A stretch of 64,000 nucleotides of DNA from a bacterium (GTDB lineage: Bacteria > Arandabacterota > Arandabacteria > Arandabacterales > Arandabacteraceae), in NCBI GenBank assembly GCA_029933125.1, contig JAOZOU010000009.1:10194-74193 (forward strand). The letters are read 5' to 3'. Below are positions 10,244 through 51,203 of the stretch, piece by piece (positions within the stretch are counted from its first letter, which is position 1; every line of letters begins with the position of its first letter). The notes under the pieces were generated by a model. It ran no database searches and was not told where the DNA came from. It worked only from the letters and a program-made list of their open reading frames with translations. The position numbers and the translations under genes were made by a program.

Positions 10244-10383
10244 GGGGTCGGAGCTAAAAATCGGCAAATCCCCCCAATTGGGGTCGGAGCTAAAAATCTG
10301 CATTCCAGCTTCTTTGGCACGGTCTGTGCAATTGCAAGTTAGGTGCCAGCCACGCCTTCGTGCACGTTTTTAGCTCCGACCCC
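10244..10383. repeat. repeat element locus 1: two direct copies of GGGGTCGGAGCTAAAAA core plus one inverted copy
   Basis: Core at 10244-10260 and 10280-10297 (direct), inverted copy 10365-10383; same core recurs at 43543-43732 and 53976-54066. Confidence 0.8.
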
Positions 10384-10410
10384 GGAGGCCGGGTGTGGTA
10401 TGATGGAGGT

Positions 10411-12111
10411 ATGGCGATTGGGCTGGATTCGTTTGGCGTAACCTTTCTCGCAAGAGACCTTAAGCAAGCAATAGTCGACCTTGAAATTGGCGGCGTTCTG
10501 CTTGCTGGCGATAGGCTGCTGACACTAAACCTCAGTGGACGATCCCGACTCGACCTACGCATCCTTCTCGATCCAACCTTACCACTGGCTTGTGCTGGTC
10601 CAGCCTCCAAGCGCAACACCAAACACGAAGACCCCCCTCATGTGCAGAGGTTTGAAGAGCACCTCTTGGGAACAACCATCGTCGATGTCTCCCAGATAGA
10701 CCTTGATCGCATTCTGCTACTTACAGTTGAAACCGAAAGGGCGAGACTGCGGCTCTATGTCGAGCTCATTCCTCCATTCCCCAACGTGTTCTTGACCGAC
10801 ACTAACGATATACTCATAGAGCCTTTGTTTAAGACTGGAATGCGGACGCGGAGGCGAGCGCTTTCAAGAGGTAAGCCCTATGTCGTCCCTGAGCCCACCG
10901 CCAAGATTCATCCGAGTGACGCTGACGACACCTTGCTCGAAAAGATTGGCTCAAACGCTGACCCCGAGATTCTGAGCAAGCAAATAGTCGGCATAAGCCC
11001 CTTTGTGTCTCGTGAGATAGTTACTCGCAGCAAGGCATCGAGTCTCGGTCGGGCTTTGAAGGAGTTGCTTTCATCCTATAGGTCTGCCTCGATTGAGCCG
11101 TGTATCTTCGAGACTGTACCTGAGCTCAGTCCCAACCCACCGCATCTTGGGATAGCCTGGTTTAGACCAAGGCTTGATGGCGTAAGCAACGTAAGACGAG
11201 TCGGCTCAATGAATGAAGCCACGTGCCGGCTGCTCGAGCACTACCTCGAAACTACCCAGCTTGAACGCCAGCGAGCACATCTTGCAAGGCTTATAGGTCG
11301 AGAGATCAAAAGGCTCGAACACAAACTCAGAGAGATCCCACCGAGAGAGGCTGAGCTGGCAAAGGCTGATTCATATCGCAAGCTCGGAGAACTCCTCGTC
11401 GCTAACCTCAATAGGGTCAAGAAGGGTGACGCCAAGATAAGTGTGATTGACCTCTATGATCCGGATCAGAAGGCAGTTGACATTCCGCTTGAGCCAGCCT
11501 TGAGCCCCCAGGAAAATGTCGAACTCTATTTCAAGAAGGCGAGAAAGGCAAGGCGACGGGCTGAGATGGCTGACATGAGGCGAACCGAGATAACCAAGCG
11601 CATCACCCAACTTGGCCACCTGCTCGATGCGCTCAAGCAAGCCAGTATTTCAGAGCAACATCTCCAGGGTATCGCCTCCAGGGTCGAGCGCAAAAAGCAC
11701 GGAGTGAAGCAGGAAGCAAAGGATATCGATGCCAGAGCCTTGAGCCTTGGGATTCGCCCTCGCCGCTATGTCGTAAGTGGCAGCTGGACGGTACTTGTCG
11801 GAAGATCTGCCAAGGAAAATGACATCCTCACCCATAAGTATGCTCGGCCCTCAGACCTTTTCTTCCATGCTCGCCAGGCTCAAGGCTCACATGTGATTCT
11901 TAAAAAGGGTAAGACCAAGACCGAGGTCTCAAAAGAGGCAATCCTTGAGGCTGCTGCAATCGCTGCCTACTACAGCAAGGCTCGCACCTCAAAGCATGTG
12001 CCGGTCTCCTATACTGAGAAACGCTATGTCAAGAAGGTGAGAAAAGGTCCACCCGGACTCGTCACCCTCCTCAGAGAAAAGGTCGTCTTCGTCGATCCCA
12101 CCCTCCCCTGA
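10411..12111 (+). CDS. rqcH: NFACT-family ribosome quality control protein RqcH (FbpA-like)
   Basis: 567 aa; NFACT-N region, central coiled coil, C-terminal NFACT-R/DUF814 motif (ARPSDLFFHARQAQGSHVILKK); ATG 10411 chosen over track GTG 10360, which lies inside the repeat element. Confidence 0.8.
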   Translation: MAIGLDSFGVTFLARDLKQAIVDLEIGGVLLAGDRLLTLNLSGRSRLDLRILLDPTLPLACAGPASKRNTKHEDPPHVQRFEEHLLGTTIVDVSQIDLDRILLLTVETERARLRLYVELIPPFPNVFLTDTNDILIEPLFKTGMRTRRRALSRGKPYVVPEPTAKIHPSDADDTLLEKIGSNADPEILSKQIVGISPFVSREIVTRSKASSLGRALKELLSSYRSASIEPCIFETVPELSPNPPHLGIAWFRPRLDGVSNVRRVGSMNEATCRLLEHYLETTQLERQRAHLARLIGREIKRLEHKLREIPPREAELAKADSYRKLGELLVANLNRVKKGDAKISVIDLYDPDQKAVDIPLEPALSPQENVELYFKKARKARRRAEMADMRRTEITKRITQLGHLLDALKQASISEQHLQGIASRVERKKHGVKQEAKDIDARALSLGIRPRRYVVSGSWTVLVGRSAKENDILTHKYARPSDLFFHARQAQGSHVILKKGKTKTEVSKEAILEAAAIAAYYSKARTSKHVPVSYTEKRYVKKVRKGPPGLVTLLREKVVFVDPTLP

Positions 12112-12121
12112 GCCAACTGCA

Positions 12122-15100
12122 TCAGCGCATAAGAACCACCTTAGCAGTCGCCGACTGCCTGCCAGATGAGATTCTTACAAAATAGATACCAGCCGAGACG
12201 GCTCTCTCATTCCTTGACATACCGCTCCAGACCAAGGAGTGCATACCAGGTGATAGATGCCCTGCCTCGCTCTCCCACACCAGCCTACCTGCAACGTCAT
12301 AAACAGAGACCCGTACATCACCAAAGGTCGGAATTGTAAAAGATATCTGGAAATTCTCGTGGCTCGGGTTGGGTACAATTTTGGCGATGCCAAAGGCGAG
12401 GTGCTGGCCCCCACCTTGAGAAACACCCGCTATGTCAACATCTCCCTCCCACCGCCGTGCATATATCTCAGGATTACCATCCCTCTCATCCCGCCACACA
12501 ACGGCTATCTTGCCTAAGGCATCGGCAGCCACAGAAGGCAAAGCACAAGAGCCGCTCTCGGATGACAGCCTCGCCTCCCTTGACCAAATCGAAGTGTACG
12601 ACTTGTAGTAGATTGCCTCAGCCTCGTCATAGGTGTCCTCCCAGACCAAATGAAAGCGGCCCCTTCCATCACCACAGATATTGGGCGTCGTGCCAGTACC
12701 AAAAATTTCACCCAGGTCAGTCCACGACCCGCCTTCGTAAAGCATCCCCCGTATGGATGTATCACTCCCATCTTGCTCCTCCCACACCACCATTACCCTG
12801 CCACCGTCGTCGCAGCCAACCGATGGACGCGTCGAGAGACCCGGAGTCGCTACCAGCCTAGTAGAACTGCTCCACACCGAACCATCCCAGACCTTGTAGT
12901 AAATCTCACTATTGCCATCACGTGTATCTTCCCAGACCACGTAGACATTGCCAAGGCTGTCAGCTGCCCCAGCCGGATAGCGTGACACTGCCCCATCGCT
13001 GGTGAGCCTTTCTTCAGTCCACCCTAAACCATCCCATCTAACGCAGTATATCTCCCAGTTGCCATCACGACTGTCCTGGAAGAATATGAATGGCTCATCA
13101 CCCGCACTCACTGCCAACGAAGGATAGTCTGACACACCACTATTGCTGGTCAGTCTTCGATTTGCCTCCCAGATTAAGCCATCATAGTGCTTATAGTATA
13201 TCTCCCAGTTGCCATCACGACTGTCCTTCCAGCACAAGTGGAGCTCGTCACCCACCCCACCACAAATTGAAGGGAGCTGGGATGAAGCCGCATCATAAGT
13301 CAGCCGCGTCTCCGGTAGCCAGCTCACTCCATTCCACTTGCGGTAGTAAATCTCATAATTGCCATCACGATTGTCATACCAGACAACATGCACGTGACCA
13401 CTTGCCTCCCTTACAACACACTTACTGTTGTTCCACGAAGTTGTCGATGAGTAAGTATCGAAGCTTACGCGCTCTTCTTCACCCCAAGGTGTGTCAATGA
13501 TGAGAATGGCGTCAGCGAGGAACGCCTCCTGCAGGTCAGAATCGGAATTCTTAAGCCAGACCTGCCAGTAGCCCGGCTCTGCCCCGCAGAGATCAAAATC
13601 ACATTTGATGTAAGAGTCCGAAAGCCTTGTCACATTCTGTGCAAAAATCGGTTCCTCACCCACCCGCTCGAGCCAGACTGAGGGATTGCCAGCAAAACCG
13701 GTCCCTGTTAGAACGGCATTTACAGGGAAGACGTTGCCAGCTTCCGTTGGGGAAAACCTCGCTATAGCTGCACGTGTCTCACTAGCTGACCAATGCTTAT
13801 AGTATATCTCACTGTTGCCGCCGCCTTGATCATGGCACCAGACGACGTGCACATTCCCGACCGCATCAGTATCCAGGCGACCGGCTTCATCGCGGGTCGA
13901 ATTATATGTCAACCGCTCATCCGGCCACCATCTCACGCCGTCGTACCGCTTGTAATATATCTCATAGTTACCATCACGGCCATCTTGCCACACCACATGC
14001 ACATTACCACTTCCATCAGTCGCTACTGACGGAGCCTCAGAACTGCCTGAAGCATTCGTCAGTCGCTCATCTGGCCCCCAACTCACACCGTCATACCGCT
14101 TGTAATAAATCTCATAGTTACCATCACGGCCATCTTGCCACACCACATGCACATTACCACTTCCATCAGTCGCTACTGATGGATGCCAGGAGTCGCCTGA
14201 AGCATCAGTCAAACGCTCATCTGCTCCCCAACTCACACCATCATAAATTTTATGGTATATCTCCCAGTTACCGTCACGATAATCTTGCCACACAACATGG
14301 ATGTTCCCACTAGTGTCCACGGTCACCTCAGGCATTCGAGATTCGCCTGAAGCAACAGTCAATCGCTCATCCGGCCCCCAACTTGCACCATCATAAACTT
14401 TGTGGTATATCTCCCAGTTACCATCACGGCTCTCTTCCCATACAACGTGCTGATTGCCATCGCTATCCACGGCAACCGCAGCCCACTCAGAATTGCCAGG
14501 ATCGTTCGTCAACCGCTCATCCGGCCCCCAACTTACACCATCATAAACTTTGTGGTATATCTCCCAGTTGCCGTCGCGATAATCCTTCCAGAAAACGTGT
14601 AAGTTTCCGCCGAGGTCTCTTAGTAGCCGTGGATGGAACGAGCTCCCCGAAGCATTAGTTAAGCGTTCATCTGGCCCCCAGGTCACGCCATCATAGCGCT
14701 TATAGTATATCTCTCCATTCCCATCTCGCTCATCCCACCACACAACATGGAGACAGACCCCATCGACGAGTACCCGAGGAGATTGGGAACTGTCATTAGC
14801 ATAGGTAAGCTGCTCTTCAGGTAGCCACTCCCCAGCTGGCATAACATAGAAACCGAAGGGGAGCGTGTCTGGCTGTCCATCTGGATTCTTGACAATAACA
14901 TCCCAGTAGCCAGGGGCAGCGTTCTCGAGATCTGCGGTACAGGTTAGCCTGTCAGAACTCTCAACGCGGATGTTATGACACACGATCCGGGGTTCACCAG
15001 GCTTTTCAAGCCAGACAGAATCAGGAAAGAAAAAGCCAGAACCCGATAGATTTGTGATGCGCACTAATTCATGGCTGTAGCCTTCATCGGGTTCAATCGA

Positions 15101-16279
15101 GTTAATCTGCGGCTTCTCAAGTGTGCCGTTATACCATTCCTTCCAGTATAGCTCCCAGCCGCCATCACGGTTGTCATACCACGCAACATGCACGTTCCCA
15201 CTTTCATCCGTCACTACTGATGGATACCAGGAGTCGCCCGAAGCAACAGTCAAACGCTCATCCGGTCCCCAACTCGCCCCATCATACCGCTTATAATAAA
15301 TCTCATAGTTACCATCACGATTGTCATACCACACCACATGCACGTTACCGCCGGTGTCCGTTCCTACAGAAGGGCTATATGAGTCTCCTGAGGCATTTGT
15401 CAACCGCTCATCTGGTCCCCAGCTCATACCATCATACCGCTTGTAGTATATCTCATAGTTGCCATCACGATTGTCATGCCACACAACATGCACATTACCA
15501 CTTCCATCAGTCGCCACTGATGGATACCGAGAGTAGCCCGAAGCAACTGTCAATCGCTCATCAGAACCCCAACTCATACCATCATACCGCTTGTAATAAA
15601 TCTCATAGTCGCCATCACGATTGTCATGCCACACAACATGCACATTACCACTTCCATCAGTCGCTACTGATGGATACCGAGAGTAGCCCGAAGCAACTGT
15701 CAATCGCTCATCAGAACCCCAACTCACACCATCATACCGCTTATAGTATATCTCTGAGTCGCCATCCCGATGATCCCACCACACCACATGTACATTCCCG
15801 CTCATATCGACTGCGACCGAGGGATCCTGGGAGAGCCCAGCTGAGTTCGTCAACCGCTCATCTGCCCCCCAACTAACACCGTCATATCGCTTATAGTAAA
15901 TCTCCCAGTCGCCATCACGATAGTCCTCCCACACGATATGAACATTACCACTTACGTCCGCAGCCATCCACGCACCCCTAGACTGTCCACCTGCATTCGT
16001 CAAGCGTTCAACAGGGCTCCAACCCGTCCCATCGTAACGCTTGTAGTAAATCTCATCGCTGCCATCGCGAGTGTCCTCCCACACCACATGCACGTTACCA
16101 AACAAGTCCGTGGTCACACACCTACCCATTTCAGCCGAAACCTGGGAAGTGGGTGGATCAGTCAGACGCCAGTCAAAGAACCAGCCAGCAGCTGCCCGAC
16201 TTGCAAAGCACAGACCCAGTGCTATCAAGATCGCAAAAGACCAACCGAACGCTTCGCTTGTGGGTCTATCACGACGCAT
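12122..16279 (-). CDS. giant secreted repeat protein (about 28 x ~50-aa propeller-like repeats, two Ig-like inserts) with T9SS/FlgD-like C-terminal sorting domain
   Basis: Signal peptide MRRDRPTSEAFGWSFAILIALGLCFASRAAAG; repeat unit GNVHVVWxDxRDGNxEIYYKRYDGxSWGxDERLT; C-terminal 85 aa match the T9SS CTD pattern (VPNPSHENFQISF...VYDVAGRLV...GIYFVRI). Start 16279 chosen for signal peptide and SD spacing. Confidence 0.8.
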   Translation of the reverse strand: MRRDRPTSEAFGWSFAILIALGLCFASRAAAGWFFDWRLTDPPTSQVSAEMGRCVTTDLFGNVHVVWEDTRDGSDEIYYKRYDGTGWSPVERLTNAGGQSRGAWMAADVSGNVHIVWEDYRDGDWEIYYKRYDGVSWGADERLTNSAGLSQDPSVAVDMSGNVHVVWWDHRDGDSEIYYKRYDGVSWGSDERLTVASGYSRYPSVATDGSGNVHVVWHDNRDGDYEIYYKRYDGMSWGSDERLTVASGYSRYPSVATDGSGNVHVVWHDNRDGNYEIYYKRYDGMSWGPDERLTNASGDSYSPSVGTDTGGNVHVVWYDNRDGNYEIYYKRYDGASWGPDERLTVASGDSWYPSVVTDESGNVHVAWYDNRDGGWELYWKEWYNGTLEKPQINSIEPDEGYSHELVRITNLSGSGFFFPDSVWLEKPGEPRIVCHNIRVESSDRLTCTADLENAAPGYWDVIVKNPDGQPDTLPFGFYVMPAGEWLPEEQLTYANDSSQSPRVLVDGVCLHVVWWDERDGNGEIYYKRYDGVTWGPDERLTNASGSSFHPRLLRDLGGNLHVFWKDYRDGNWEIYHKVYDGVSWGPDERLTNDPGNSEWAAVAVDSDGNQHVVWEESRDGNWEIYHKVYDGASWGPDERLTVASGESRMPEVTVDTSGNIHVVWQDYRDGNWEIYHKIYDGVSWGADERLTDASGDSWHPSVATDGSGNVHVVWQDGRDGNYEIYYKRYDGVSWGPDERLTNASGSSEAPSVATDGSGNVHVVWQDGRDGNYEIYYKRYDGVRWWPDERLTYNSTRDEAGRLDTDAVGNVHVVWCHDQGGGNSEIYYKHWSASETRAAIARFSPTEAGNVFPVNAVLTGTGFAGNPSVWLERVGEEPIFAQNVTRLSDSYIKCDFDLCGAEPGYWQVWLKNSDSDLQEAFLADAILIIDTPWGEEERVSFDTYSSTTSWNNSKCVVREASGHVHVVWYDNRDGNYEIYYRKWNGVSWLPETRLTYDAASSQLPSICGGVGDELHLCWKDSRDGNWEIYYKHYDGLIWEANRRLTSNSGVSDYPSLAVSAGDEPFIFFQDSRDGNWEIYCVRWDGLGWTEERLTSDGAVSRYPAGAADSLGNVYVVWEDTRDGNSEIYYKVWDGSVWSSSTRLVATPGLSTRPSVGCDDGGRVMVVWEEQDGSDTSIRGMLYEGGSWTDLGEIFGTGTTPNICGDGRGRFHLVWEDTYDEAEAIYYKSYTSIWSREARLSSESGSCALPSVAADALGKIAVVWRDERDGNPEIYARRWEGDVDIAGVSQGGGQHLAFGIAKIVPNPSHENFQISFTIPTFGDVRVSVYDVAGRLVWESEAGHLSPGMHSLVWSGMSRNERAVSAGIYFVRISSGRQSATAKVVLMR

Positions 16280-16690
16280 AGCCATTCCCCCTTTTGAAAG
16301 CCTTTGAAGCATTCTACTCAAAAACATAGCGGCCAACCCGCAGCCACGAACAAAAACCCGGAGAGACGCTCACAATGTCACAGCAGCCCAGCCTGCGCCA
16401 ACATTGGAACCAATTAGCCATTATAGCACACAAGATGCGCTATTTCAACACCTTCTCGTACTTTTGCGGGGAATGGGTGGGGAGAACCCGCTTTCGATGA
16501 AACTGTTTTACATCCTCCACTTCGTTTGATAAAATGGGCGGCCGGCAAGAGAATCTTAACCAAAGGCTGCTGATTGTTCTGCGGGTCTGTCCGAGAGTGC
16601 AGGAAGGGCTAGGGATAGCAGCTACCCAAATCCCTTCCTCACGGTTGATGGGAAATATCGCTTCTGCCTTTCAATTGGGGGTGATTTTCC

Positions 16691-19153
16691 ATGGCGCGCC
16701 TTGACTGTCCCCGGTTGGTGCTGCCACTTGCGGTTCTTATTTTCACATTGGTGTCCCCTCCAACGCCTGTGCTGGGTGATTGGCTCTTTAGCACGAGACA
16801 GGATTTTGCGGTGGGTAGCAGACCTTCACAAGCTGCCCTCCATGACTTCAATAATGATTTCATACTCGACGCTGTCGTCGCCAACAGTGAGAGTGACAAC
16901 GTATCCATCCTCATTGGAAGAGGTGATGGGACATTTACCAGAGCGGAGGACGTAGACGTGGGGGATTACCCTGCCTCCATTTTGGCAACCGATGTTGACC
17001 TTGATCAGGATTGCGACCTTGTCGTAGCCAACACGTGGAGTAATACCATCTCGGTCCTCCTTGGTCATGGCGACGGAACATTCACCCCATCAGCGGAGAT
17101 TCTTGTTGGTGGAGGACCTTGTTTCGTCATCGGTGGCGACTTTAACTGCGACTGGATCCCTGACTTTGCTGTTGCCAACATGTACAGTGATGATATCTCC
17201 GTCGTGTTAGGCAATGGGGATGGAACATTTGATGCCCCGATACGCTTTCCTGTTGGCGGGTACCCGAACTCAATGGTTTCGGGCATGCTGAATGCAGACG
17301 GGTTTTCCGACATCGCTGTAACATGCTATTACGACAACAAAGTCTCAATCCTCTTCGGAAACGGTGATGGCACATTCACAAAGGCAGCCGACCATCCTGT
17401 TGACCACCCAAACGAAGTCTCAACTGGAGACTTTGATTCGGACGGCGATCTTGATCTTGTAGTGGTCAGAGTGTCTTCGACAAACCAATCGGTCCTCGTC
17501 TTCCTAAATGACGGCAATGGAACATTTCAGCCACCGGTTGCATATGAGGCTTACAACTACGGGATCTCAGTTGCTGTATCAGATGTTAATCTTGACGGAC
17601 ATCAGGACTTGGCAGTCGGTGATTTCAACGAGTCATTCTACATTCTCCTGGGAAACGGGGATGGCACTTTCCAGTCGTCGATTTACCACGATGCTGGGAA
17701 CTCCGTCGTCTGCATCCGAGTGGGAGACCTGGACAGAGACGGGCTACCGGATATCCTCGCTGTCAATAGGTATGAGGATACGGTCTCAAGCATCATAGGA
17801 AACGGAGACGGCACGTTCAAAGTCGCACCGTGGTACATGTGTGATTCCGGACTCTGCTCCGTGGCACTAGGCTATCTCAACGCCGATTCATTTCTCGACA
17901 TCGTTACTGGTAATGCTGACGCCCGCAATGTTTCAGTGCTCATTGCAAACGGTGATGCCACCTTTATGCCTGCTGTCAGCTACTTGATTGGGCTCGGTCT
18001 GAGCTGGGTAGTCATCGACGATTTTGGCGGCGACGCAGTTATGGATCTGGCTGTCTCCAGTGATATGCGCTATGTCGCTGTACTTATGGGAAACGGTGAT
18101 GGCACCTTCCAGGATCCAGTGACCTACTGGGTAAAGGGAGGTGCTGCGCATCTCGCCTCCGGCGATGTGGATGGCGACGGCGATGCAGATCTAGCTGTCG
18201 CAATCAAAGACAGTGGCGAGGTAGCGCTCCTACTTAACAACGGTGATGGCACCTTCGCTCCGGCAGTTGGCTACGCGGCTGATGGTGGCACCAATTGTGT
18301 CTGCCTCGATGACTTTGATTGTGACGGTGATCTAGATATCGCTACGGCCAATTGCTATGGGGATAATGTCTCTATCCTGCTGGGCAATGGGGACGGGACC
18401 TTCGCTGCAGCCGTGAACTACCCTGCATCCTTTGGTCCTTGCAGCGTGGTCTCAAACTATCTCGATGGAGATTCTCTTCCAGACCTTGCGGTCGTAAACG
18501 AATATAGCGACAATGTCTCAATACTACTCGGCAACGGTGACGGGACGTTTGACCTGGCCCGAAACTACCCTGTAGCCAACTCTCCTCTCTCACTTGCTAC
18601 AGGAGACTTCAATCGTGACTGCGTACCAGATCTTCTGGTCGTGCATCAGTTCCACTACTTTGTCTCTGTCCTTCTCGGAAACAGAGACGGTACTCTCAGG
18701 GAGCCAGTACTGTATGGCGCTCATATTTTCCCGCGGGCTGCAGCAGTCGGTGACCTAAACGCCGATGGGTCGGATGATGCTGTTGTTGCCAATCAGGGCT
18801 GCCTCAGCGTTTCGGTCCTTCTGGGGGAAATTTGCGCTGGTGTACCTATCGATGGAGACAGGAAACAAGCAGACTCAATTTGCCAGCTGAGGGTCGCGCC
18901 AAATCCATGCACTGGCAGTGCCGCGATTTGGTTCGACATTCCGTCAGAGCAATCTCTAAGAAGTGTCGCTGTCTATGATGTTTCAGGTGCTCTGGTCCGG
19001 CAATGGGTGTTGGAAGCGACGATAAGTAATGGAAACTGTGTTATCTGGGACTGCAGAGACAATTACGGAAGGCGTGTCGCACCGGGCGTTTACTTCGCAA
19101 GTATCCAAAGCGAAGGCGTGTTGGCCACACGCAAGCTCATAGTACTTCGCTAG
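16691..19153 (+). CDS. FG-GAP/VCBS repeat protein with T9SS/FlgD-like C-terminal sorting domain
   Basis: 820 aa; signal peptide; about 13 repeats with D-x-N-x-D-G-x-x-D and GNGDGTF motifs; C-terminal APNPCTGSAAIWFDIP...VYDVSGALV...GVYFASI sorting domain. Confidence 0.8.
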   Translation: MARLDCPRLVLPLAVLIFTLVSPPTPVLGDWLFSTRQDFAVGSRPSQAALHDFNNDFILDAVVANSESDNVSILIGRGDGTFTRAEDVDVGDYPASILATDVDLDQDCDLVVANTWSNTISVLLGHGDGTFTPSAEILVGGGPCFVIGGDFNCDWIPDFAVANMYSDDISVVLGNGDGTFDAPIRFPVGGYPNSMVSGMLNADGFSDIAVTCYYDNKVSILFGNGDGTFTKAADHPVDHPNEVSTGDFDSDGDLDLVVVRVSSTNQSVLVFLNDGNGTFQPPVAYEAYNYGISVAVSDVNLDGHQDLAVGDFNESFYILLGNGDGTFQSSIYHDAGNSVVCIRVGDLDRDGLPDILAVNRYEDTVSSIIGNGDGTFKVAPWYMCDSGLCSVALGYLNADSFLDIVTGNADARNVSVLIANGDATFMPAVSYLIGLGLSWVVIDDFGGDAVMDLAVSSDMRYVAVLMGNGDGTFQDPVTYWVKGGAAHLASGDVDGDGDADLAVAIKDSGEVALLLNNGDGTFAPAVGYAADGGTNCVCLDDFDCDGDLDIATANCYGDNVSILLGNGDGTFAAAVNYPASFGPCSVVSNYLDGDSLPDLAVVNEYSDNVSILLGNGDGTFDLARNYPVANSPLSLATGDFNRDCVPDLLVVHQFHYFVSVLLGNRDGTLREPVLYGAHIFPRAAAVGDLNADGSDDAVVANQGCLSVSVLLGEICAGVPIDGDRKQADSICQLRVAPNPCTGSAAIWFDIPSEQSLRSVAVYDVSGALVRQWVLEATISNGNCVIWDCRDNYGRRVAPGVYFASIQSEGVLATRKLIVLR

Positions 19154-19404: not shown

Positions 19405-20646
19405 CTAGTCCGCCGGGTTCACGAGGCGCCCCATGAAGAGGATGGTGCCGGTTGTGTTCTCCTTTATAAGGAAAATGAAAGGATGATCGGCTCGAAATGT
19501 CTTGGCTGGCGTAGGTGCCATCGCGAGCGCCATGGTAACCCCTGTTGCCGCAGCTGCCTCTGTCCCACGCTCATTCACATCGACATATGCTTTGTGCACA
19601 ACAGCTGAGATGAAAAGATCACGCTTGCCTGTCATACCTGAGAAATCCGCTCTTGTTGGCTCGAATGCATCCTTCATGCCAAGTTCTTCAAGAGCTCCAT
19701 CAACCCGAAACTTAGTCTCGAGCTTAAAACGCGGAAGGCTTATGTCCACCCGCTCAGGCGCAAGACGCCCAAGCCAGGCGGAAAGGGAATCAGGGGCAAG
19801 CCCCGCCTCGAGCCCTTTGAGCCCCTCAACCTTCCTTGGAAGCAGAATCACCATTGAAAGATCTCCACCCTTGTAGGGGAGCTCAAGTGCCTGAAAGTCA
19901 TCTCTCTCAAAATAGTGAAAGTGTCCTTCCTGATGCATCATGGGAATGGTGACCGTCGTTGTGTCATCTACATGGAAGGGCTCATCCGAGGTGCGCTTCT
20001 CCTTGAAAGGATGCTCCCAGTTGCCCAGAAAATAGATGGCGTTGGTAAGCACAAGCCTTACGTCGGGGGTAAGAAGCCCCCTGCCTATGAGCTCCTGTAT
20101 CTTGCCCTCAGTCTTCTCAGACACCCACTCATTTATGCGCTCCCTTGCACCAGCGGCATCATTGGCAAAATCAACCTGAAAAAGGCCTGCCCCATAGTAT
20201 TTTTTGGTTAAACCTATGAACTCAGCCTCAAACTCATAGCCCTCCTGTGCCCAAAGTGCATTCGCCACACTGAGCTTGAAGTTGCCTTTCCTACCAAGGG
20301 CATTGAGTGAATCTGTAAGCTCCCCAAATGCCTTGTGGATACCCTCACCACCTACCCCACCAAGCCCACCAAAATGCAATGCCCGAGCCATCTCCTCAGC
20401 AGTCTTACCCCGCGCTCCTGCATATGTCATCGCAAGCGCACTTGAGATGCTGTATGGGGAAAAGAATAGATTTCCTTCCCCAAGTTGCTGGTAAAGATCA
20501 AGCGCAAAAGCATTGTTTCTTGCCGCAAGTGTGTCCATCGTAACCTCTTGTGTTGGCTTTGCCTGGTCGCTTCCACAGCTAGATGCTCCCATCAGCGACA
20601 TTCCGATAAGCATTACCGCTATGAATCGCCAATCTCGCAGTCCCAT
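19405..20646 (-). CDS. serpin (serine protease inhibitor) with signal peptide
   Basis: Serpin hinge and reactive-centre-loop signature GTEAAAATGVTMALAMAP...HPFIFLI...ILFMGRLVNP plus N-terminal FSPYSISSALAMTYAGARG; ATG 20646 preceded by AGGAGG; track start 20790 likely too long. Confidence 0.85.
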   Translation of the reverse strand: MGLRDWRFIAVMLIGMSLMGASSCGSDQAKPTQEVTMDTLAARNNAFALDLYQQLGEGNLFFSPYSISSALAMTYAGARGKTAEEMARALHFGGLGGVGGEGIHKAFGELTDSLNALGRKGNFKLSVANALWAQEGYEFEAEFIGLTKKYYGAGLFQVDFANDAAGARERINEWVSEKTEGKIQELIGRGLLTPDVRLVLTNAIYFLGNWEHPFKEKRTSDEPFHVDDTTTVTIPMMHQEGHFHYFERDDFQALELPYKGGDLSMVILLPRKVEGLKGLEAGLAPDSLSAWLGRLAPERVDISLPRFKLETKFRVDGALEELGMKDAFEPTRADFSGMTGKRDLFISAVVHKAYVDVNERGTEAAAATGVTMALAMAPTPAKTFRADHPFIFLIKENTTGTILFMGRLVNPAD

Positions 20647-20865
20647 CCTTCTCCTCCTTCCTATGTACCCAACCCCCATATTATGATAACCACTCTCCAA
20701 GGTCAAAACCAAACCTTCGGGGGAGATTCCCTCGAAGACCACATACCAGACGCGTGAAATGCATCGCTCGAGGGTATGCTGAGATCTCATGTGTGGTTCC
20801 TTCAGCCCAGATGGAACCTTCTACGCCAATTTGAGAATTTTAGAGTGGAGAGAAGGAGGGTGAGA

Positions 20866-22154: not shown

Positions 22155-23360
22155 ATGAGGAAAAGATCGCTTCTTTCGACAATTCTCTTGATCACGATAG
22201 GTGGCTCTGGGCTATTGTTAGCCCCCCTTGCCCGAGCTGCCGCTGGCTGGACTCCTGCAATCCGGCTGACTAATAGCGATGGCTCCCTAACGCTTTCGGG
22301 TCCCCCCGGACTTAAGCAGATAGCTGCAGGCCCTGACGGGAGGATACATGTAGTTTGGGCTGATAACCGAGATGGGATGTATCACATCTATTACAAGTGC
22401 TTTGATGGAAAAGCTTGGAGCAAAGACGAATGCATAAGCCAGGGCTATGGCTTAGACCCCAGTATCTCGCTCCTTCCTCACGGTCGGATACTGGTAGCGT
22501 GGTACTGGTTCGGCTACGACACCTTTGCTCGGATCTTCGACGGGTCAAGATGGCAGAACGAGACCAAGCTCAGCGATTGCACACCGATCAATAGCACCTG
22601 GCCTTCTACGGTGACCGACGCTGCAGGACGTGCCCACGCATTCTGGCCAGTCTCAAGCTTCTGTGAGGCGTTCCTAATGCATCGTGTCTATGATGGCCAA
22701 AGGTGGCTTCCCTGTGACACGATACCAGGCACCACAGGTAACCCCATGCTGACGGCTGCTGCGTGTGATAGCAAGGGAAATCTTCATCTCGTGTGGACGG
22801 ATGGAAGAGATGGCAACTTTGAAATCTACTACACGACGTATGATGGCTCGCGGTGGGGTGCTTTTCAAAGACTCACGAGTGACCCAGCAGCATCAGAGCT
22901 TCCGGATGTTGCAATCTCCTCAAAGGATGTCATCTATGTGGTTTGGCAGGACTCTCGTACAGGAGTCCCTGAGGTCTATCTTAAGACATTCAACGGCAAA
23001 TGGTCTCCTGATCAGAGACTTTCAGCAGACGACGGCAGACTATCGGGCAATCCCAAGATAGCTATAGATTCAATGGACAGGGTACACATCGTTTGGGGAG
23101 AGCAAAGGCATGAGAAGATCAAGTTCCATGACATCTATTACCGCAGGTCGCGTCCCAGGGGTAAGCTATGGTCGCCCCCTGTAAGACTGACAAGTGATGC
23201 AGCAATCCCGAAATACTACTCCCTCTGTGTTGACTCTGCTGGTAACGCCTATGTGGTTTGGATGGATTTCCGCAATTTCAGGTGGGATATCTATTTCAAA
23301 ACTCAGTGTAAATCCAACGACCCTGCCTTCTGGACAAGGGGGCTCACCCAGGCCAATTAA
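22155..23360 (+). CDS. secreted propeller-repeat protein, paralogous to the repeats of the 12122-16279 protein, no sorting domain
   Basis: 401 aa; signal peptide; repeats RIHVVWADNRDGMYHIYYKCFDGKAWS, LHLVWTDGRDGNFEIYYTTYDGSRWG, IYVVWQDSRTGVPEVYLKTFNGKWS share the giant protein's repeat motif. Confidence 0.7.
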   Translation: MRKRSLLSTILLITIGGSGLLLAPLARAAAGWTPAIRLTNSDGSLTLSGPPGLKQIAAGPDGRIHVVWADNRDGMYHIYYKCFDGKAWSKDECISQGYGLDPSISLLPHGRILVAWYWFGYDTFARIFDGSRWQNETKLSDCTPINSTWPSTVTDAAGRAHAFWPVSSFCEAFLMHRVYDGQRWLPCDTIPGTTGNPMLTAAACDSKGNLHLVWTDGRDGNFEIYYTTYDGSRWGAFQRLTSDPAASELPDVAISSKDVIYVVWQDSRTGVPEVYLKTFNGKWSPDQRLSADDGRLSGNPKIAIDSMDRVHIVWGEQRHEKIKFHDIYYRRSRPRGKLWSPPVRLTSDAAIPKYYSLCVDSAGNAYVVWMDFRNFRWDIYFKTQCKSNDPAFWTRGLTQAN

Positions 23361-23387: not shown

Positions 23388-26300
23388 CTACCTCCAGTCA
23401 CCAGAGGAAACAAAAGCAGCCCATCGTACCGGATGATCTATCATTCCATGCGAGCGCAGTTCTTTGAGCACTTTGAGCTCAACCGCGTTAAGGGTGAATG
23501 CAATATTCTCTGGGGGCGTGCTGTAGATGGCACTACAAACTTCGGCAGCAAGTCTGTCAGACACTGGCCACATTGCACCGATTATTGTGCGCGCCCCAGC
23601 CAGCCGAAAGGCACGCACGGGGCCATAAACGCCTTCGGCATCTTCAAGCTCGCCAGTTGCGGTTTCGCACCCCGAAAGCACCACGAGATCGGTTCCTCTG
23701 AGATCAAGGGCAAGGATCTCCTCAGAGGTAAGTGTGCCATCATCAATCATTGGGTTCTCAAAGCCTCTACCATGGAGATTTGCTCGAGCCAGAAAAAGCC
23801 CTGATAAGACCAGGGGATTGAGACTATCAGGGTTGATACTTACCCTATCTGCTGAAGGGTAGATCTTCCCCGGCGAGCAAGATGCCAGGTGATAACCATG
23901 GGTTGCAAGGTGAAGCACGCGCTTCCCAGGAGCATCAGCTTTTACCCTTTCCTCAGTTGCGTCTTTGCCGACATAGATATACGCGGGCTCACCTGTGACC
24001 TCGCGCCACCTATGAGCTACAGCTTCTACCTCACGGCGGCTCTCAGGGAGAGGTGGAACAACAATGTTGAACCGTTCCTTGCAGGGAATCGATGTCTGAC
24101 CATGCTCAAGTAAGTCAAGCTCAGGCTTGAGGGCACCCCTCTCAGGTAAGGCATCGTAGTCGGGGGCACCAATTGCCAGAAGCCCCTTACCCCGCTTAGG
24201 ATTTTTCCCAAGCGCAAGGAGGTCGCGAGCAGCTGCGATGTAGTGTACGGGATAATGTTCGATAAGATACTTGCCATCACCTGCTATCAAGCCTGCAAAG
24301 GAAATGCGCGAAATCTCAGCATCAGAGCAAATGATCACAAGATCCGAACCCTCGAGGTGACCTTCAATCGGCTCAACAAGGATCTCATAGAGCCTTCTTC
24401 CAAGCCTTGTGTAGTATTCCATATCCTCAAGTGTGGGACCTGACCTGGAATCAGCTAACTTCCTCATGTGGTGGCAATAAAGGCGGACAGCAAAGTCGAT
24501 GTCAGCAGCATCGCCCAGCTGTACAATACGCACCTCGGAATCACTGGTTAGCACGAGCGCAAGGTATCTGAAAAAGTAGCCGTTAGGCTCAACCCAGTAC
24601 TGATACTTGAAATACTCAACAACTGTAGTTCTCATAGGAAATCTTCTCAGGGCACTGAGCACCTTGGCTACACTGGTGTCAAGTACCTGCGCTGCGTCGG
24701 CATGATCAGCTATCAAACTGGCAAGTCTTCGCTCAAGGCGCTCCTTTCGCTTTCTGAGATTTTTGAGCATTGTCTCTAAGTCTTTGCTGCTGGGGATCTC
24801 AGAAGTGTAGAGCACCGAGATTTGCTGGTGAATGAGGCTAAGGGAATCCACAACCGCAGTTGCATAATCTGTCGTTCCACGTAAGGCGTGTCTTTGAGCA
24901 AGGAGATCAGTGACACCGCCTTTGGACTGCAATACGGCATCTGCAACCTCGAGCGTGGCATGCTCTTCCCTTTCGGGGAGATCGAAGTAAGTAGTAAGTA
25001 GCCTATCCACACAGGCGAGCTGAACCTCTCGATACTTAAGAGCCTCTCTTTCCGGCATTAGCAGAATCTGATCCGCTACGGTTTGCCATCCGAGCTCGAG
25101 TGTCTCCAGGGCAGCGTCCCAGGCCGCCCGGACGTCACCTCTCATCCTATGAAATCTGCTGAGATCCAGGAGATTCATGGTTGCATCTGGACCAAGCGAA
25201 CCGAGTGCTTTCTGCATAGCAATTGCCTTCTCATACATTGGCATTGCTTCACCATAGCGCCGCTCATCTCGATAGCAATTTGCGAGGGTCATCAAAATGG
25301 AAACAATTGCCGGGCTCGCCGTCTCAGCCTCCGTCTCGCAGGAAGCTATTGCTGAAGCACACAGGCTTTCAGCCCTGCTATAGTCATGGATGTAGCGGTA
25401 GACAGTTGCAAGGGCTGCGATTGCCCGTAGGAGAGCGGGATGCTGAGGACTAAAGGGCTTATTTAAAATTGCAATAGCACGTTCCAGGTTGTCTATAGCC
25501 ATTCTAATGTACTTTGTGTGGTTATTGCTACGCAGCTCGTAGTTCAGGGATCCGAGCTCGGCAAGTACCATACCAATGCCTGGATGATTCGGTCCAAGAC
25601 CTACCTCACCTCTCCCGAGAGCATCCTTGAGCACAACATGTGCCTGATCAAACCGCTGGGATGCAACGAGCACTCTTGCAAAACCGAGCATTGCCTCAAG
25701 ACGGTGGGTATTCATAGCAGGTGACGTGCGATCAAAAATGGCAAGAGCCTCTTCATAAAGCCTTTCAGCCTCGACAAGGTTGGCTTGACAATATCTGAGG
25801 CGTGCCATATTGGTGATTGTTGAGGCAACGAAAGGGTGCCAGTAACCAAGGCTGATGCCGAGCAATCTTCTGGCCTCAAGCAAGTGGTATTCTGCCGAAA
25901 GATAATCCAGTTTGTAAGTATCTATCAACCCTTGCAGGTTCAGGGTATGCGCTAATGTAACACTGTCGGCCCTGTCCGATATCTCAAGAAGGAAGCGTGA
26001 CTCATCAAGCCAATCTTGAGCCCTGGTATAGTAACCCTGGGCAACCGCGAGATGAGCAAGAGCGAGATCGATGTGTGCTTCCCAGCAAGGGTCGGGGTAG
26101 TTCTGAGAAAGATAGCGAGCCTGAGATAGATAGCCTTGCGCTTCAGCATAGTGTCCCAGCTCAGTTCCTATCTCACCAAGGTAGGTAAGAAGTGGCAGGG
26201 CCTGCTCGCGCAATTCCGAAGGGGGAGTTCGGGTGATTAATCGCTCCAGCTTCCCGTACAGGCTTGAAAGTTCTTCGTGACCACCATACTGGAGATAGAA

Positions 26301-26594
26301 CGCAGCCAAGACTGCAATCTGTGAAGGGAGGGATTGAAATTCCCTTCCCTCACCAATCGACCTCAATGTCCTTGCTAGCTTGGCCTGGGCATCACGGTAA
26401 CTTTCATACTTTAAGAGTCGAGTCGATCCGCATTGGGAATCTACAACAACAATCGGCAGGTAGCCCCCACCAACACTTGACGGAGACCCTCCAGCAAGCC
26501 TAATTAACCCAAGAGTGCACACTGCTGCGAGGAGGACCTGATTGACTTTCGATGAATCCATTCCTCCCTGCCTTTGCTTTTCGAGAAAACGCAT
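23388..26594 (-). CDS. TPR-repeat protein with C-terminal CHAT (caspase-like) peptidase domain, predicted secreted
   Basis: CHAT catalytic dyad context VLHLATHGYH (His) and LVVLSGCETATGE (Cys) at C-terminus; multiple TPR-like helical repeats centrally; signal-peptide-like MRFLEKQRQGGMDSSKVNQVLLAAVCTLGL. The first 140-150 aa of the track ORF would overlap the divergent sigma-factor region and are rejected; alternative start ATG 26561. Confidence 0.75.
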   Translation of the reverse strand: MRFLEKQRQGGMDSSKVNQVLLAAVCTLGLIRLAGGSPSSVGGGYLPIVVVDSQCGSTRLLKYESYRDAQAKLARTLRSIGEGREFQSLPSQIAVLAAFYLQYGGHEELSSLYGKLERLITRTPPSELREQALPLLTYLGEIGTELGHYAEAQGYLSQARYLSQNYPDPCWEAHIDLALAHLAVAQGYYTRAQDWLDESRFLLEISDRADSVTLAHTLNLQGLIDTYKLDYLSAEYHLLEARRLLGISLGYWHPFVASTITNMARLRYCQANLVEAERLYEEALAIFDRTSPAMNTHRLEAMLGFARVLVASQRFDQAHVVLKDALGRGEVGLGPNHPGIGMVLAELGSLNYELRSNNHTKYIRMAIDNLERAIAILNKPFSPQHPALLRAIAALATVYRYIHDYSRAESLCASAIASCETEAETASPAIVSILMTLANCYRDERRYGEAMPMYEKAIAMQKALGSLGPDATMNLLDLSRFHRMRGDVRAAWDAALETLELGWQTVADQILLMPEREALKYREVQLACVDRLLTTYFDLPEREEHATLEVADAVLQSKGGVTDLLAQRHALRGTTDYATAVVDSLSLIHQQISVLYTSEIPSSKDLETMLKNLRKRKERLERRLASLIADHADAAQVLDTSVAKVLSALRRFPMRTTVVEYFKYQYWVEPNGYFFRYLALVLTSDSEVRIVQLGDAADIDFAVRLYCHHMRKLADSRSGPTLEDMEYYTRLGRRLYEILVEPIEGHLEGSDLVIICSDAEISRISFAGLIAGDGKYLIEHYPVHYIAAARDLLALGKNPKRGKGLLAIGAPDYDALPERGALKPELDLLEHGQTSIPCKERFNIVVPPLPESRREVEAVAHRWREVTGEPAYIYVGKDATEERVKADAPGKRVLHLATHGYHLASCSPGKIYPSADRVSINPDSLNPLVLSGLFLARANLHGRGFENPMIDDGTLTSEEILALDLRGTDLVVLSGCETATGELEDAEGVYGPVRAFRLAGARTIIGAMWPVSDRLAAEVCSAIYSTPPENIAFTLNAVELKVLKELRSHGMIDHPVRWAAFVSSGDWR

Positions 26595-26834
26595 ACCATG
26601 CACTATTTGGGATGTCAAGCCTGCCAACTCGGATGTGCCCGTCCCAACGCCATAAACAATATTGCACTCCATGCGATTAAGCTTGAAGATATGGCGTTCG
26701 TGAGGTAACATTTGCAGTAGCACACGGTTCCTGCTCGGATCTGCTACGAAAGAGAGCTGGCGGAGGGCAGACTCATCGACTTCTCGCTCGAAGATAAGGA
26801 CACCCGGGAAACCGTCAGGCAATGGATTCAGCCT

Positions 26835-27317
26835 GTGGTAAGAAGTCCAAGGTGGTATCAGCGCATCAAGCACGAAGAGCAGGATATTTACAATGAAGTT
26901 ATGTTGAGATTCCTGATTGCATGTCAGAAAGGCCGCGTCGATACTGCAAGAGATCCCAGGCCTTATGTTCAGAAAATTGCCTTTCACGTCTGCGTTGACT
27001 GGATCAGGCGTAACCATCGAGAGGTCCCTTTCGACGACATCACCGAAGAGATTAGCAGGAAGCTTTTCAGGCGTGAGCCCAGTATTCTCGAAAAGCTCAC
27101 ACGTGATGAAACGGTTGAGGTTCTAGTGGAGCTGATTGGAACCTTGCCTGAGAAATGCCGAAATATATTACGGATGACATTTTATGAAGAAAAATCAGAG
27201 AAGGCGATTGCAGATGCTCTTGGTGTACCCGTTGGAACCGTAAAATCTAGAAAGTCGAGATGCCTCGACAAGCTCAGGCATCTCTTGAAAGGAAAAGACA
27301 ATCAAGCTATGGATTAG
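26835..27317 (+). CDS. ECF-type RNA polymerase sigma factor (sigma-24 family), N-terminally short
   Basis: Region 2 (EQDIYNEVMLRFL...IAFHVCVDWIRRN) and region 4 (AIADALGVPVGTVKSRKSRCLDKLR) motifs; first canonical start is GTG 26835 after in-frame stop at 26718. Confidence 0.75.
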   Translation: MVRSPRWYQRIKHEEQDIYNEVMLRFLIACQKGRVDTARDPRPYVQKIAFHVCVDWIRRNHREVPFDDITEEISRKLFRREPSILEKLTRDETVEVLVELIGTLPEKCRNILRMTFYEEKSEKAIADALGVPVGTVKSRKSRCLDKLRHLLKGKDNQAMD

Positions 27318-27393
27318 AAAACGATCGGAATTGAGGATCGATGCTTTGTAGAAGGAGCATTCATGGCGTGAGAATCTGAAGTGAGGTTGGGAT

Positions 27394-28476
27394 GTGTATG
27401 CGCAGGGTAGCAGGCATGTAGCAGATTTACTTGACGATTACATCAATAGAAAACTCAATGATTCTCAATCCAAAGTGGTCGAGGCCCATGTAGCTACCTG
27501 TAAGGCCTGTGCCGTTGAGCTTGCCTTCAGGCTGGCAGTAGCCAAAGCCACGAAAAGGTACTATGCGAGGCAATCTCTCGACCACGTGGATACCGCCATT
27601 CTGGCAGATCTTGCCCTGGGAGGGCATAATCTCAGCCCCGAATCGAAGAACAAAGCTCTCGAGCATATCGCCTCATGCCCCCAGTGCCGGAAACACTATG
27701 AGACAGCAAAGGGTGTTGCCGATGATCTTAATCTGGAGCCGATCCCGTCTCCCAGTGAGTCCCATCCCGGGCCTGACCTTGCGAAGGAATCTGAGATGCG
27801 GCGTGGCCTCATGGTAAGAAACTTCTTTTTGTTTCTATTCGGAAGATGGCGTTATGCTGCCGTAGCCTTTGCCGCTGCTTTCTTAACCTTTGCAATCATC
27901 GAACTAAGCAAGCCATCGTATCCTCCAGGGATAACATCCAGCCCTTCCCTTGGGGAAGGCTCCTCACAGCCCTTTGCAACATCACAGGTCCGAGGAGTAA
28001 AGTCCCCGCCTGAGAAGGCTCTCTCTGAGACAGGTGCGGCTACTTCTCCTACCTCAACGATCGGAGCCACCTTGCCCCCAAGAGTGCTATACTTTGATGC
28101 GGGAACAAAGGTGGGACCCGACGAAGAACTTGACTTAGCCAGACTGGAGGTAACAGCTCGGGTGGTTACACTCGCAAGGCAAGAGAATCTGCTTCTTATA
28201 ATCGAACGCCCACGAGAGCTTGTAGGCAAGACCATCGGCTGTGTTCAGATCTACAAAGTCGAAGGCTCGGCAGCCATCTTAGAAACTGAGTGGAGTAAGT
28301 TTGCGATTCCAAGGGAAGGGAAAATCCCCCTGATGATACCCTCAGAAATTCTTCAACCCGGCACTTACGCAATCTCAGTCCAGCCTACCGAACCAGACCA
28401 GACTGCAACCTTCTTCCCTGTCAAGGTGAACCTGGAGTCGGCATATTCTTCCGAACAGAAGGAATCCTCAAAGTAA
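27394..28476 (+). CDS. anti-sigma factor, zf-HC2 type, single-pass membrane protein
   Basis: N-terminal H-x3-C-x2-C motif (EAHVATCKAC) plus second Cys pair (CPQCRKH); one TM helix (AVAFAAAFLTFAIIEL); periplasmic C-terminal domain; GTG start 76 bp downstream of the ECF sigma gene. Confidence 0.6.
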   Translation: MYAQGSRHVADLLDDYINRKLNDSQSKVVEAHVATCKACAVELAFRLAVAKATKRYYARQSLDHVDTAILADLALGGHNLSPESKNKALEHIASCPQCRKHYETAKGVADDLNLEPIPSPSESHPGPDLAKESEMRRGLMVRNFFLFLFGRWRYAAVAFAAAFLTFAIIELSKPSYPPGITSSPSLGEGSSQPFATSQVRGVKSPPEKALSETGAATSPTSTIGATLPPRVLYFDAGTKVGPDEELDLARLEVTARVVTLARQENLLLIIERPRELVGKTIGCVQIYKVEGSAAILETEWSKFAIPREGKIPLMIPSEILQPGTYAISVQPTEPDQTATFFPVKVNLESAYSSEQKESSK

Positions 28477-38611: not shown

Positions 38612-38621
38612 CCGATTCTTG

Positions 38622-40055: not shown

Positions 40056-40218
40056 TTCATTAGCACGGGGCTGTGAAGCAGCCGAATGCTTAGGATCTTA
40101 GTTCTTGTGAGCCAATTGCTATGGTCGGGATCTTTATAACATCTGAGGTGGTAAGTAAATAGGTGGTTACGAGTGCGAGGGGTTATGGGATGGCTTCGGT
40201 TAAGGGTACCAAGGGGGC

Positions 40219-40252
40219 GCAGGATGCCAAGGAGCGCAGGATGCCAAGGAGC
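40219..40252. repeat. perfect 17-bp tandem duplication GCAGGATGCCAAGGAGC x2
   Basis: Read directly at 40219-40235 and 40236-40252 in intergenic region between two reverse-strand genes. Confidence 0.6.
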
Positions 40253-40275
40253 ATGCGACCTCTAGGGTGGTGGGG

Positions 40276-42027: not shown

Positions 42028-42179
42028 TCGCTTCCTTATACGGTCTCTACGAAAATCCCCCTCTCCGCTCTTCCCTTTGCTTCATCTCTGGCCCCCTACT
42101 GGCAGGATTGACCCATCCCAAGAGCTATGTTAGATTGGGAATTGGAGAGGATCAGTGTTTATACTCGAAGGGGGAAGTT

Positions 42180-50991: not shown

Positions 50992-51203
50992 CGGCTACCT
51001 CTGTTGTTATATCTGGCTGCTACCGCTGTTGGCCAGCCCCTTGGGCGTGTCTATTACCAGGCCTTATAGATACCTCTCTAGCATATGTCCATTGGTCATT
51101 GAGTGCTTCATCGGTGCCACACAGGCGCACCTTAAAATTAGTGGTCTCGCATGAAATCTGTGCCCGTGCTTCACCAAACTCCTCTAAGATGCACCTAACC
51201 TAT

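Follow-up and report, generated by a model that had tools for sequence, protein, structure and literature searches.

A three-propeller protein with a type IX secretion sorting domain encoded by an uncultivated bacterium

Highly repetitive, recently amplified beta-propellers have been reported, and the Asp-box supercluster is among the lineages described (Pereira & Lupas 2022, PMC9218822). A search for fibrillar adhesins has picked out a cluster that overlaps the Pfam family BNR_4 and whose function the authors considered ambiguous (PMC9210967). In the propeller enzyme CylK, an N-terminal calcium-binding beta-roll forms the active site together with the propeller, and calcium sites bridge the blades (PMC8916777). 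Here we describe a propeller protein encoded in a 64,000-nucleotide (nt) stretch of bacterial DNA (GenBank assembly GCA_029933125.1, contig JAOZOU010000009.1, positions 10,194 to 74,193), referred to below as the window. Its gene lies on the minus strand between positions 16279 and 12122 of the window, as do all the features of the protein given below. It is close to certain that the protein is modular, with a signal peptide, two successive pairs of propeller and immunoglobulin (Ig)-like spacer, a third propeller, a linker and a C-terminal domain (CTD). Our preferred explanation, to which we give a probability of about 0.55, combines export by Sec and by a secretion system of type IX (T9SS), cleavage in the linker and avidity-based binding of a polymer.

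The open reading frame (ORF) runs uninterrupted from the ATG at 16279 to 12122, stop codon included, and its product of 1,385 amino acids (aa) bears out the length given in a preliminary description of this DNA. The longest form of the ORF begins with a TTG at 16336 and would encode 1,404 aa. A Shine-Dalgarno-like AAGGGGGA is located 7 nt 5' of the ATG. At the DNA level the gene repeats with a period of 150 bp and an identity of 75-81% (Tandem Repeats Finder, scores 464-1060). A hidden Markov model (HMM) made from 18 obvious 50-aa units of the protein and run back on it returned exactly 21 units, 18 of them with E-values between 1e-22 and 1e-33 and three that scored less well. The 50-aa repeat, already noted in the preliminary description, is thus far beyond chance, though the copy number of about 28 proposed there has to be lowered to 21, arranged as three blocks of seven (aa 46-395, 493-842 and 946-1279). 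Units 19 and 20, which correspond to blades 5 and 6 of the third propeller, are degenerate.

Structure prediction agreed with the suggestion that the repeat is a propeller blade. The first AlphaFold2 (AF2) model, of aa 31-500, drew on an alignment of the equivalent segments of homologues (22 sequences) and has a mean predicted local distance difference test score (pLDDT) of 91.3 and a predicted template modelling score of 0.86; in it, seven blades of four strands each precede a beta-sandwich of ~90 residues. The model of aa 930-1385 (mean pLDDT 89.0) likewise contains seven blades, despite the degenerate blades 5 and 6. Propeller 1 comprises seven blades of ~50 aa (aa 32-388; 15116..16186) and opens with the N-terminal strand DWRLT. 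Propeller 2 (aa 481-835; 13775..14839) corresponds to units 8-14 of the unit HMM, and its seven blades, assigned by sequence comparison only, are 48-88% identical to the same-position blades of propeller 1. Propeller 3 (aa 932-1280; 12440..13486) also has seven blades, and the degenerate form of its blades 5 and 6 is kept in orthologues.

Within the 50-aa unit, DSSP analysis of the AF2 model assigns PSVAVD to strand A, NVHVVW to strand B, EIYYKRY to strand C and ERLT to strand D; RDGN makes the B-C hairpin and [YF]DGxxW (unit positions 37-42) the C-D hairpin. Each propeller starts with a W-x-x-x-x-R-L-T strand, and its seventh unit ends after the third strand. In propellers it is usual for an N-terminal strand to complete the last blade, an arrangement known as velcro closure. 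From the sequence and the predicted strand order, the DWRLT strand seems to provide blade 7 with its outer strand in just this way.

The blades of propellers 1 and 2 are mostly 50-94% identical at the protein level. Median blade identity is ~55-60% in propellers 1 and 2 and ~28% in propeller 3. The closest pair, blades 4 and 5, shares 94% of its protein and 92% of its DNA sequence, and blades 12 and 13 share 88% and 87%, respectively. Between the pairs, blades 4-5 and 12-13 are 80-85% identical in DNA, a level that indicates recent duplication or exchange. We compared 1,551 blades of 120 homologues and found the scaffold to be near-invariant (W22 97%, T49 97%, W42 94%, together with G39, D24, Y33 and L48); the full set of scaffold residues in the unit is W22, D24, R26, G28, E31-I32-Y33, G39, W42 and R47-L48-T49. 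In the same blades, the high-entropy positions rich in Y, W, H and F are 4, 6 and 7, in the inter-blade loop from D to A, and 23, 25 and 30, around the B-C hairpin RDGN.

Four named models match the repeat above their cut-offs, all at blade level. Pfam BNR_4 (PF15892) scores 69.4 bits (cut-off 27.3) over four stretches, the best of which covers profile positions 220-265 of 272, and Pfam SBBP (PF06739), the 'seven-bladed beta-propeller' repeat, scores 43.3 bits (cut-off 20.5). NCBIfam TIGR04275 (beta_prop_Msarc, 'beta-propeller repeat protein') reaches 132.1 bits (cut-off 85) in 12 stretches on the VVWxDxRDGNxEIY core, and NCBIfam NF053835 reaches 101.7 bits (cut-off 90) in six stretches, the best spanning profile positions 28-230 of 458. 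The preliminary description matched the repeat to no named family and proposed a candidate novel repeat class, to be given up if a known family were assigned; neither claim survives these matches and the 101,427 cluster representatives reported below. Among propeller repeats, the blades fall into the Asp-box/SBBP-like group, and the protein is an ordinary, well-formed member (~43% identity to its nearest relatives) of a very large catalogued family. The BNR/Asp-box-like YDG-SWG turn seen earlier does hold, with [YF]DGxxW placed at the C-D hairpin where Asp-boxes sit and BNR_4 above threshold. The canonical Asp-box S-x-D-x-G-x-T-W is absent from the blade consensus, in which the C-D hairpin [YF]-D-G-x-x-W is one residue shorter and without the leading Ser. 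PF02012 (BNR) gave no match in the protein even at E<=1, and BNR_2 matches were found in homologues.

Other candidate assignments were rejected. Equivalence to the PDIAV motif-containing lipoprotein of NF053835 is contradicted by a match confined to the repeats of a 1,385-aa protein, and by an AxA cleavage site with no lipobox Cys. A PD40/TolB-type propeller is suggested by RDGxxEIY, but PD40 (PF07676) gave an E-value of 0.71 (10.3 bits) and TIGR02800 62.4 bits against a cut-off of 343; the likeness is at motif level only. A cation loop of the VCBS/integrin type, DxDxDG, does not agree with the blade consensus W-x-D-x-R-D-G-N, which has Arg in place of the second Asp, and a CylK-type calcium site bridging the blades was rejected on the same consensus. 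Neither the protein nor a profile of 22 sequences found a true match among the sequences of the PDB. Matches to antibody heavy-chain variable domains (E ~0.1), over framework and complementarity-determining regions FR3-CDR3-FR4 with the pattern ..EDTxIYYC...WGQGTxxT.., were set aside as a coincidence with EIYY...WG..ERLT (for example aa 113-145).

Neighbours of the fold include the symmetric seven-bladed lectins BP39L, PLL and CV39L, the heads of integrin alpha, the PL42 enzyme FoRham1, GH145, virginiamycin B lyase and PL25. In the Foldseek ranking, sialidases came first (a Micromonospora enzyme among them), followed by GH145, PLL3 and CylK.

The three blocks are separated by two Ig-like inserts of ~92-96 aa (aa 389-480 and 836-931), as had been described earlier. 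Spacer 1 (14840..15115) is an Ig-like, IPT/TIG-like beta-sandwich in the AF2 model (strands at model residues 361-450, pLDDT ~90). Spacer 2 (13487..13774) was recognised by its likeness to spacer 1, with which it can be aligned at equal length and with the shared pattern ..SP..G......L.G.GF.....VWL...GE........V........C.F.L....GYW.V...N.D..., and it is probably a beta-sandwich as well. A Pfam search of both spacers gave no significant match. In some homologues, TIG (PF01833) does match the regions between propellers (29.8 bits in P0007 and 23 bits in P0019). In giant proteins the spacer (profile positions 354-448) is repeated in tandem, with up to 59 copies in an array. Of the layout of a fibrillar adhesin (repeated stalk, adhesive domain and surface anchor), the protein has an anchor-like CTD and just two spacer copies, and its propellers are putative adhesive domains at most; some relatives have 9-59 copies of the spacer.

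The N-terminus of the 1,385-aa protein reads as a Sec signal peptide (aa 1-31; 16187..16279), with the translation MRRDRPTSEAF / GWSFAILIALGLCFA / SRAAA/GW. Its putative layout is a basic n-region, a hydrophobic core of 15 residues and an A-A-A/G (AxA) site at aa 29-32. Five orthologues (P0001-P0005) have equivalent N-termini that end directly ahead of the conserved W-x-x-x-x-R-L-T. At the other end, propeller 3 is followed by a flexible linker (aa 1281-1296, VDIAGVSQGGGQHLAF; 12392..12439), which is poorly conserved (20-40% identity among orthologues) and contains the only segment of the aa 930-1385 model with pLDDT < 50 (13 residues, model residues 352-364).

The last 89 residues form a T9SS type A sorting domain (aa 1297-1385; 12125..12391, stop codon 12122-12124), as the preliminary description had proposed in calling it Por/T9SS-like. 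It scores above the curated cut-offs of PF18962 (31.4 bits, cut-off 27) and TIGR04183 (37.5, cut-off 23), whose matches span aa 1301-1382 of 1385, and also of FlgD_ig (31.1, cut-off 27). In the AF2 model it is a beta-sandwich of ~eight strands (model residues 368-454, pLDDT ~88-95), and its motifs PNP...I.F, V.VYDV.GRLV, G.H...W.G and GIYFVR, which follow the usual PNP / YDxxGRxV / GxYFxR series, are kept in orthologues. Genes for Mla and SecDF are present in the window, and these indicate a diderm envelope. Orthologues have been named 'T9SS type A sorting domain-containing protein' by NCBI. Judged from these sequence features, export through T9SS is probable.

A second candidate cargo is encoded in the window. 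Divergent from the propeller gene, at 16691-19153 on the plus strand, lies the gene of an 820-aa FG-GAP/VCBS repeat protein (FG-GAP_3, 243 bits in 14 stretches) with the same type A CTD (TIGR04183, 25.8 bits, cut-off 23). The FG-GAP models match this neighbour and not the propeller protein.

A homology search returned 539 proteins with E<=1e-5. The five orthologues (1,384-1,421 aa) can be aligned to 99% of the query length and are 41-43% identical to it. Where relatives carry a name, it is the T9SS one given above or 'FlgD immunoglobulin-like domain containing protein', from Candidatus Eisenbacteria. Units come nearly always in sevens; among 120 homologues two sets of seven (7,7) were the commonest arrangement (59/120), and a single set (7) was found in 17. 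Their domain partners, TIG, PKD, fn3, FG-GAP and Big, are of adhesin type. An exhaustive search of 1.84 billion cluster representatives with a profile of propeller and spacer gave 101,427 representatives at E<=1e-3, 50,915 at E<=1e-10 and 11,365 at E<=1e-30, part of them through the Ig-like module. Among genomes of GTDB species, those with relatives at 39-53% identity, measured on the segment that matches best, belong to Bacteroidota, Ignavibacteriota, Lentimicrobiaceae, Aegiribacteria, WOR-3, Cloacimonadota and Stahlbacteria; weaker relatives are present in Dehalococcoidia, Planctomycetota and a cyanobacterium. The family is found chiefly in uncultivated bacteria, Candidatus Eisenbacteria among them, and in phyla like Ignavibacteriota, WOR-3 and Cloacimonadota.

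A comparison of this locus with that of P0002, made for clues to function, showed no conserved gene neighbourhood. A 401-aa paralogue with the same 50-aa repeat, a signal peptide and no CTD is encoded ~6 kb away (22155-23360, plus strand). The unit HMM finds six units in it at E<=0.01, BNR_4 scores 26.7 bits, just below its cut-off, and TIGR04275 scores 45.8 bits; by analogy we take it to be a single seven-bladed propeller. Beside P0002 itself (GCA_043810925.1, contig JBDRNT010000036.1, 378-4344) stand three tandem genes of ~400 aa with a FlgD_ig/CTD-type domain, which shows a local expansion of CTD-tagged proteins in an Eisenbacteria metagenome-assembled genome.

We interpret the protein as an exported, multivalent binding protein. 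In this proposal, Sec would carry it across the inner membrane, the outer-membrane type IX translocon would recognise the CTD, and the CTD would be cut off within the flexible linker, with surface attachment or release of the protein as the outcome. Once exported it would serve as a non-catalytic binding or adhesion protein, with three rigid discs spaced by the Ig-like modules and seven near-equivalent blade surfaces on each disc. The scaffold residues would build the fold, and the variable aromatic positions on one face would contact the putative ligand, most likely a glycan or other polymer. Propeller enzymes normally have differentiated blades. Here the blades of propellers 1 and 2 are so alike (50-94% identity) that there is no asymmetric active-site signature. 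Multivalent binding fits better than an enzyme because of this blade symmetry, the variable aromatic loops, the adhesin-type partners and the Ig-like spacers. In its favour, too, are the symmetric lectins and integrin alpha heads among the fold neighbours, the tandem arrays of the spacer in giant proteins and the BNR_4-overlapping cluster of the adhesin screen (PMC9210967). An adhesin or binding role is plausible by analogy, and set against all its rivals together it would be a roughly even bet.

Several points weigh against this proposal. T9SS core genes (SprA/Sov, PorU, PorV, PorK/L/M/N or GldK/L/M/N) were not found within the 64-kb window, and a search for literature on T9SS, or type IX secretion, in Eisenbacteria found none. 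The closest solved fold, CylK, is an enzyme, and BNR_4, the Pfam family that matches best, is one of enzymes (PL25 and PL42, with GH145 of the same fold), which are also strong fold neighbours. The ligand-binding role is argued by analogy, with no binding-site motif detected. Finally, the variable loop positions probably share one 'top' face, and this placement relies on how propellers are generally built and on the order of the predicted strands, not on coordinates.

The enzymes of BNR_4 lead to the rival that survives best, although we consider it unlikely: the protein would be a secreted carbohydrate-active enzyme, or three such enzymes in tandem, of the seven-bladed sialidase-clan type (like the GH145 rhamnosidases, PL25 ulvan lyases or PL42 rhamnose-glucuronate lyases), degrading extracellular polysaccharide. 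BNR_4 exceeds its gathering threshold and includes the PL25 and PL42 enzymes (PMC13193363, PMC8377490), yet the best of its four stretches is about one blade long, identity to the enzymes is 12-16%, and neither sequence nor profile finds a PDB match. The conserved asymmetry of blades 5 and 6 in propeller 3 could host a specialised site; against this, near-identical blades are atypical of propeller enzymes, and the columns invariant across orthologues are nearly all scaffold Trp, Gly or Asp. A sulfatase and an arylsulfotransferase are encoded ~25 kb away, but the surroundings of the gene and of its orthologue P0002 contain no carbohydrate-utilisation operon.

A structural coat is also improbable in our estimation. 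The protein would then be delivered by T9SS as an S-layer-like or matrix-forming component that self-assembles or shields the cell. S-layer proteins are among the T9SS cargo of Tannerella (PMC8869499). The rigid repeated modules would suit such a role, as would the many paralogues per genome or contig in relatives (several matches of the homology search lie on a single contig, and three FlgD_ig proteins stand beside P0002) and the single-propeller paralogue 6 kb away. The loop positions, however, are hypervariable between blades and paralogues, which fits diversified recognition better than a lattice.

A bolder form of the binding-protein proposal is put forward as a doubtful speculation: the family would be a natural variable-surface binding scaffold, in which a rigid, consensus-like frame of seven blades would bear its specificity at six aromatic-rich hypervariable positions per blade, and exchange of blades within the gene would diversify it (blades 4/5 and 12/13 share 85-92% of their DNA sequence). 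If true, and with many paralogues per genome, this uncultivated lineage would possess a varied set of receptors, displayed through T9SS, that bind particles, polymers or prey.

It is very improbable that the repeat count and architecture are an assembly artefact of collapsed or expanded 150-bp repeats. DNA identity between adjacent units does reach 92%, and an independent short-read assembly with identical neighbouring genes (Logan SRR21545388) breaks inside the gene; but the frame is intact over 4.2 kb, the units come as 7+7+7, as the fold requires, and the five orthologues, aligned over 99%, have the same block structure. In the Logan assembly, a 194-aa fragment of the repeat gene lies at the end of a 19-kb contig (L023, positions 2-583). 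The protein itself, looked up exactly from either start codon, has no record, and its neighbours are recorded on Logan contigs of 12-19 kb. Since 150-bp repeats break short-read assemblies, members of the family are probably under-counted or truncated in metagenomes. A CylK/BrtB-like propeller that alkylates small molecules or is otherwise catalytic in natural-product chemistry is highly unlikely, the protein being exported with a surface-sorting tag, lacking the N-terminal calcium-binding beta-roll of CylK (PMC8916777), showing no sequence similarity by HMMER and having no biosynthetic genes nearby in the window.

Upstream of the gene, a sigma-70-like promoter candidate (16420..16448, minus strand; TTGAAA, 17 nt, TG-TATAAT) lies ~140 nt from the start codon and has 11/12 consensus matches in a consensus scan, as a pattern match only; promoter-like sites in the region are not more numerous than expected from shuffled sequence. 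On the other side, an NFACT/RqcH-like ribosome quality-control gene (10360-12111, plus strand; NFACT_N 196 bits, NFACT-R_1 56 bits) is convergent with the propeller gene and ends 10 bp from its stop codon. A full-length bacterial serpin (19405-20790, minus strand; PF00079, 434 bits) with an N-terminal extension of ~90 aa is encoded between the two propeller-repeat genes. In the region 23388-28476, the gene of a CHAT-domain and TPR protein (1,144-1,209 aa with alternative start codons) adjoins those of an ECF sigma factor (26835-27317) and of a zf-HC2 anti-sigma factor (27394-28476). Further along, 37061-43541 holds genes for two PMT_2-type glycosyltransferases, an arylsulfotransferase (ASST) and a sulfatase, a cluster that may serve envelope or glycan modification. 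On the minus strand at 44602-51872 are two ORFs without Pfam or NCBIfam matches, of 1,106 aa (47671-50991) and 427 aa (44602-45885), flanked by genes for a multi-TPR protein (45851-47674) and a DUF4159 protein (51204-51872).

These results correct the annotation of the gene, which encodes a three-propeller, T9SS-tagged surface protein of the Asp-box/SBBP-like group and not a new repeat class. With ~11,000 cluster representatives at E<=1e-30, some of them found mainly through the spacer, a ligand or a structure for one member would annotate thousands. The near-symmetric blades are attractive for repeat-protein engineering, and they illustrate the ongoing blade amplification described in PMC9218822.

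The protein was also compared with several known systems. The C-terminal beta-propeller of CylK (PDB 7RON/7ROO) shares 12-16% identity with it and no homology detectable by HMMER; the propeller of our protein begins straight after the signal peptide, with neither a beta-roll domain nor an acidic inter-blade loop. The seven-bladed lectins of Photorhabdus (PLL/PLL3), Burkholderia (BP39L) and Chromobacterium (CV39L) are 8-16% identical to it and share no family with it, and in contrast to this three-propeller protein PLL, BP39L and CV39L are single-domain proteins that are not T9SS cargo. Of the BNR_4 model (in the sialidase/Asp-box clan, with the PL25 ulvan lyases and the PL42 lyase FoRham1 as members, and GH145 of the same fold) it matches only the blade-level part, and it differs from the BNR_4 family in its shortened [YF]DGxxW, the lack of a PF02012 match, its near-identical blades and its three tandem propellers. 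SBBP and TIGR04275 match above cut-off, and the 7+7+7 organisation fits the name of SBBP, whereas both are generic models of 38-40 aa that have no assigned function and cover the B-C hairpin only, the present unit being 50 aa long. With the T9SS type A cargo of Bacteroidota (TIGR04183/PF18962) the protein shares a C-terminal beta-sandwich of ~85 aa, a linker before it and an N-terminal Sec signal, although here the host is an uncultivated bacterium and the secretion machinery was not found within the window. By its SecD, the nearest relatives from named phyla are in Eiseniibacteriota (54%) and Latescibacteria (51%), and closer ones (77%) are recorded only as 'MAG: bacterium'. PMC9218822 applied a cut-off of 60%, at or below which the present median blade identity places the protein, while individual blades reach 94% protein and 92% DNA identity, in keeping with those propellers. 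The closest likeness is to the five orthologues from Candidatus Eisenbacteria and other uncultivated bacteria, in which the signal peptide, the three seven-bladed propellers with degenerate blades 5 and 6 in the third, the two Ig-like spacers and the CTD are all found again.

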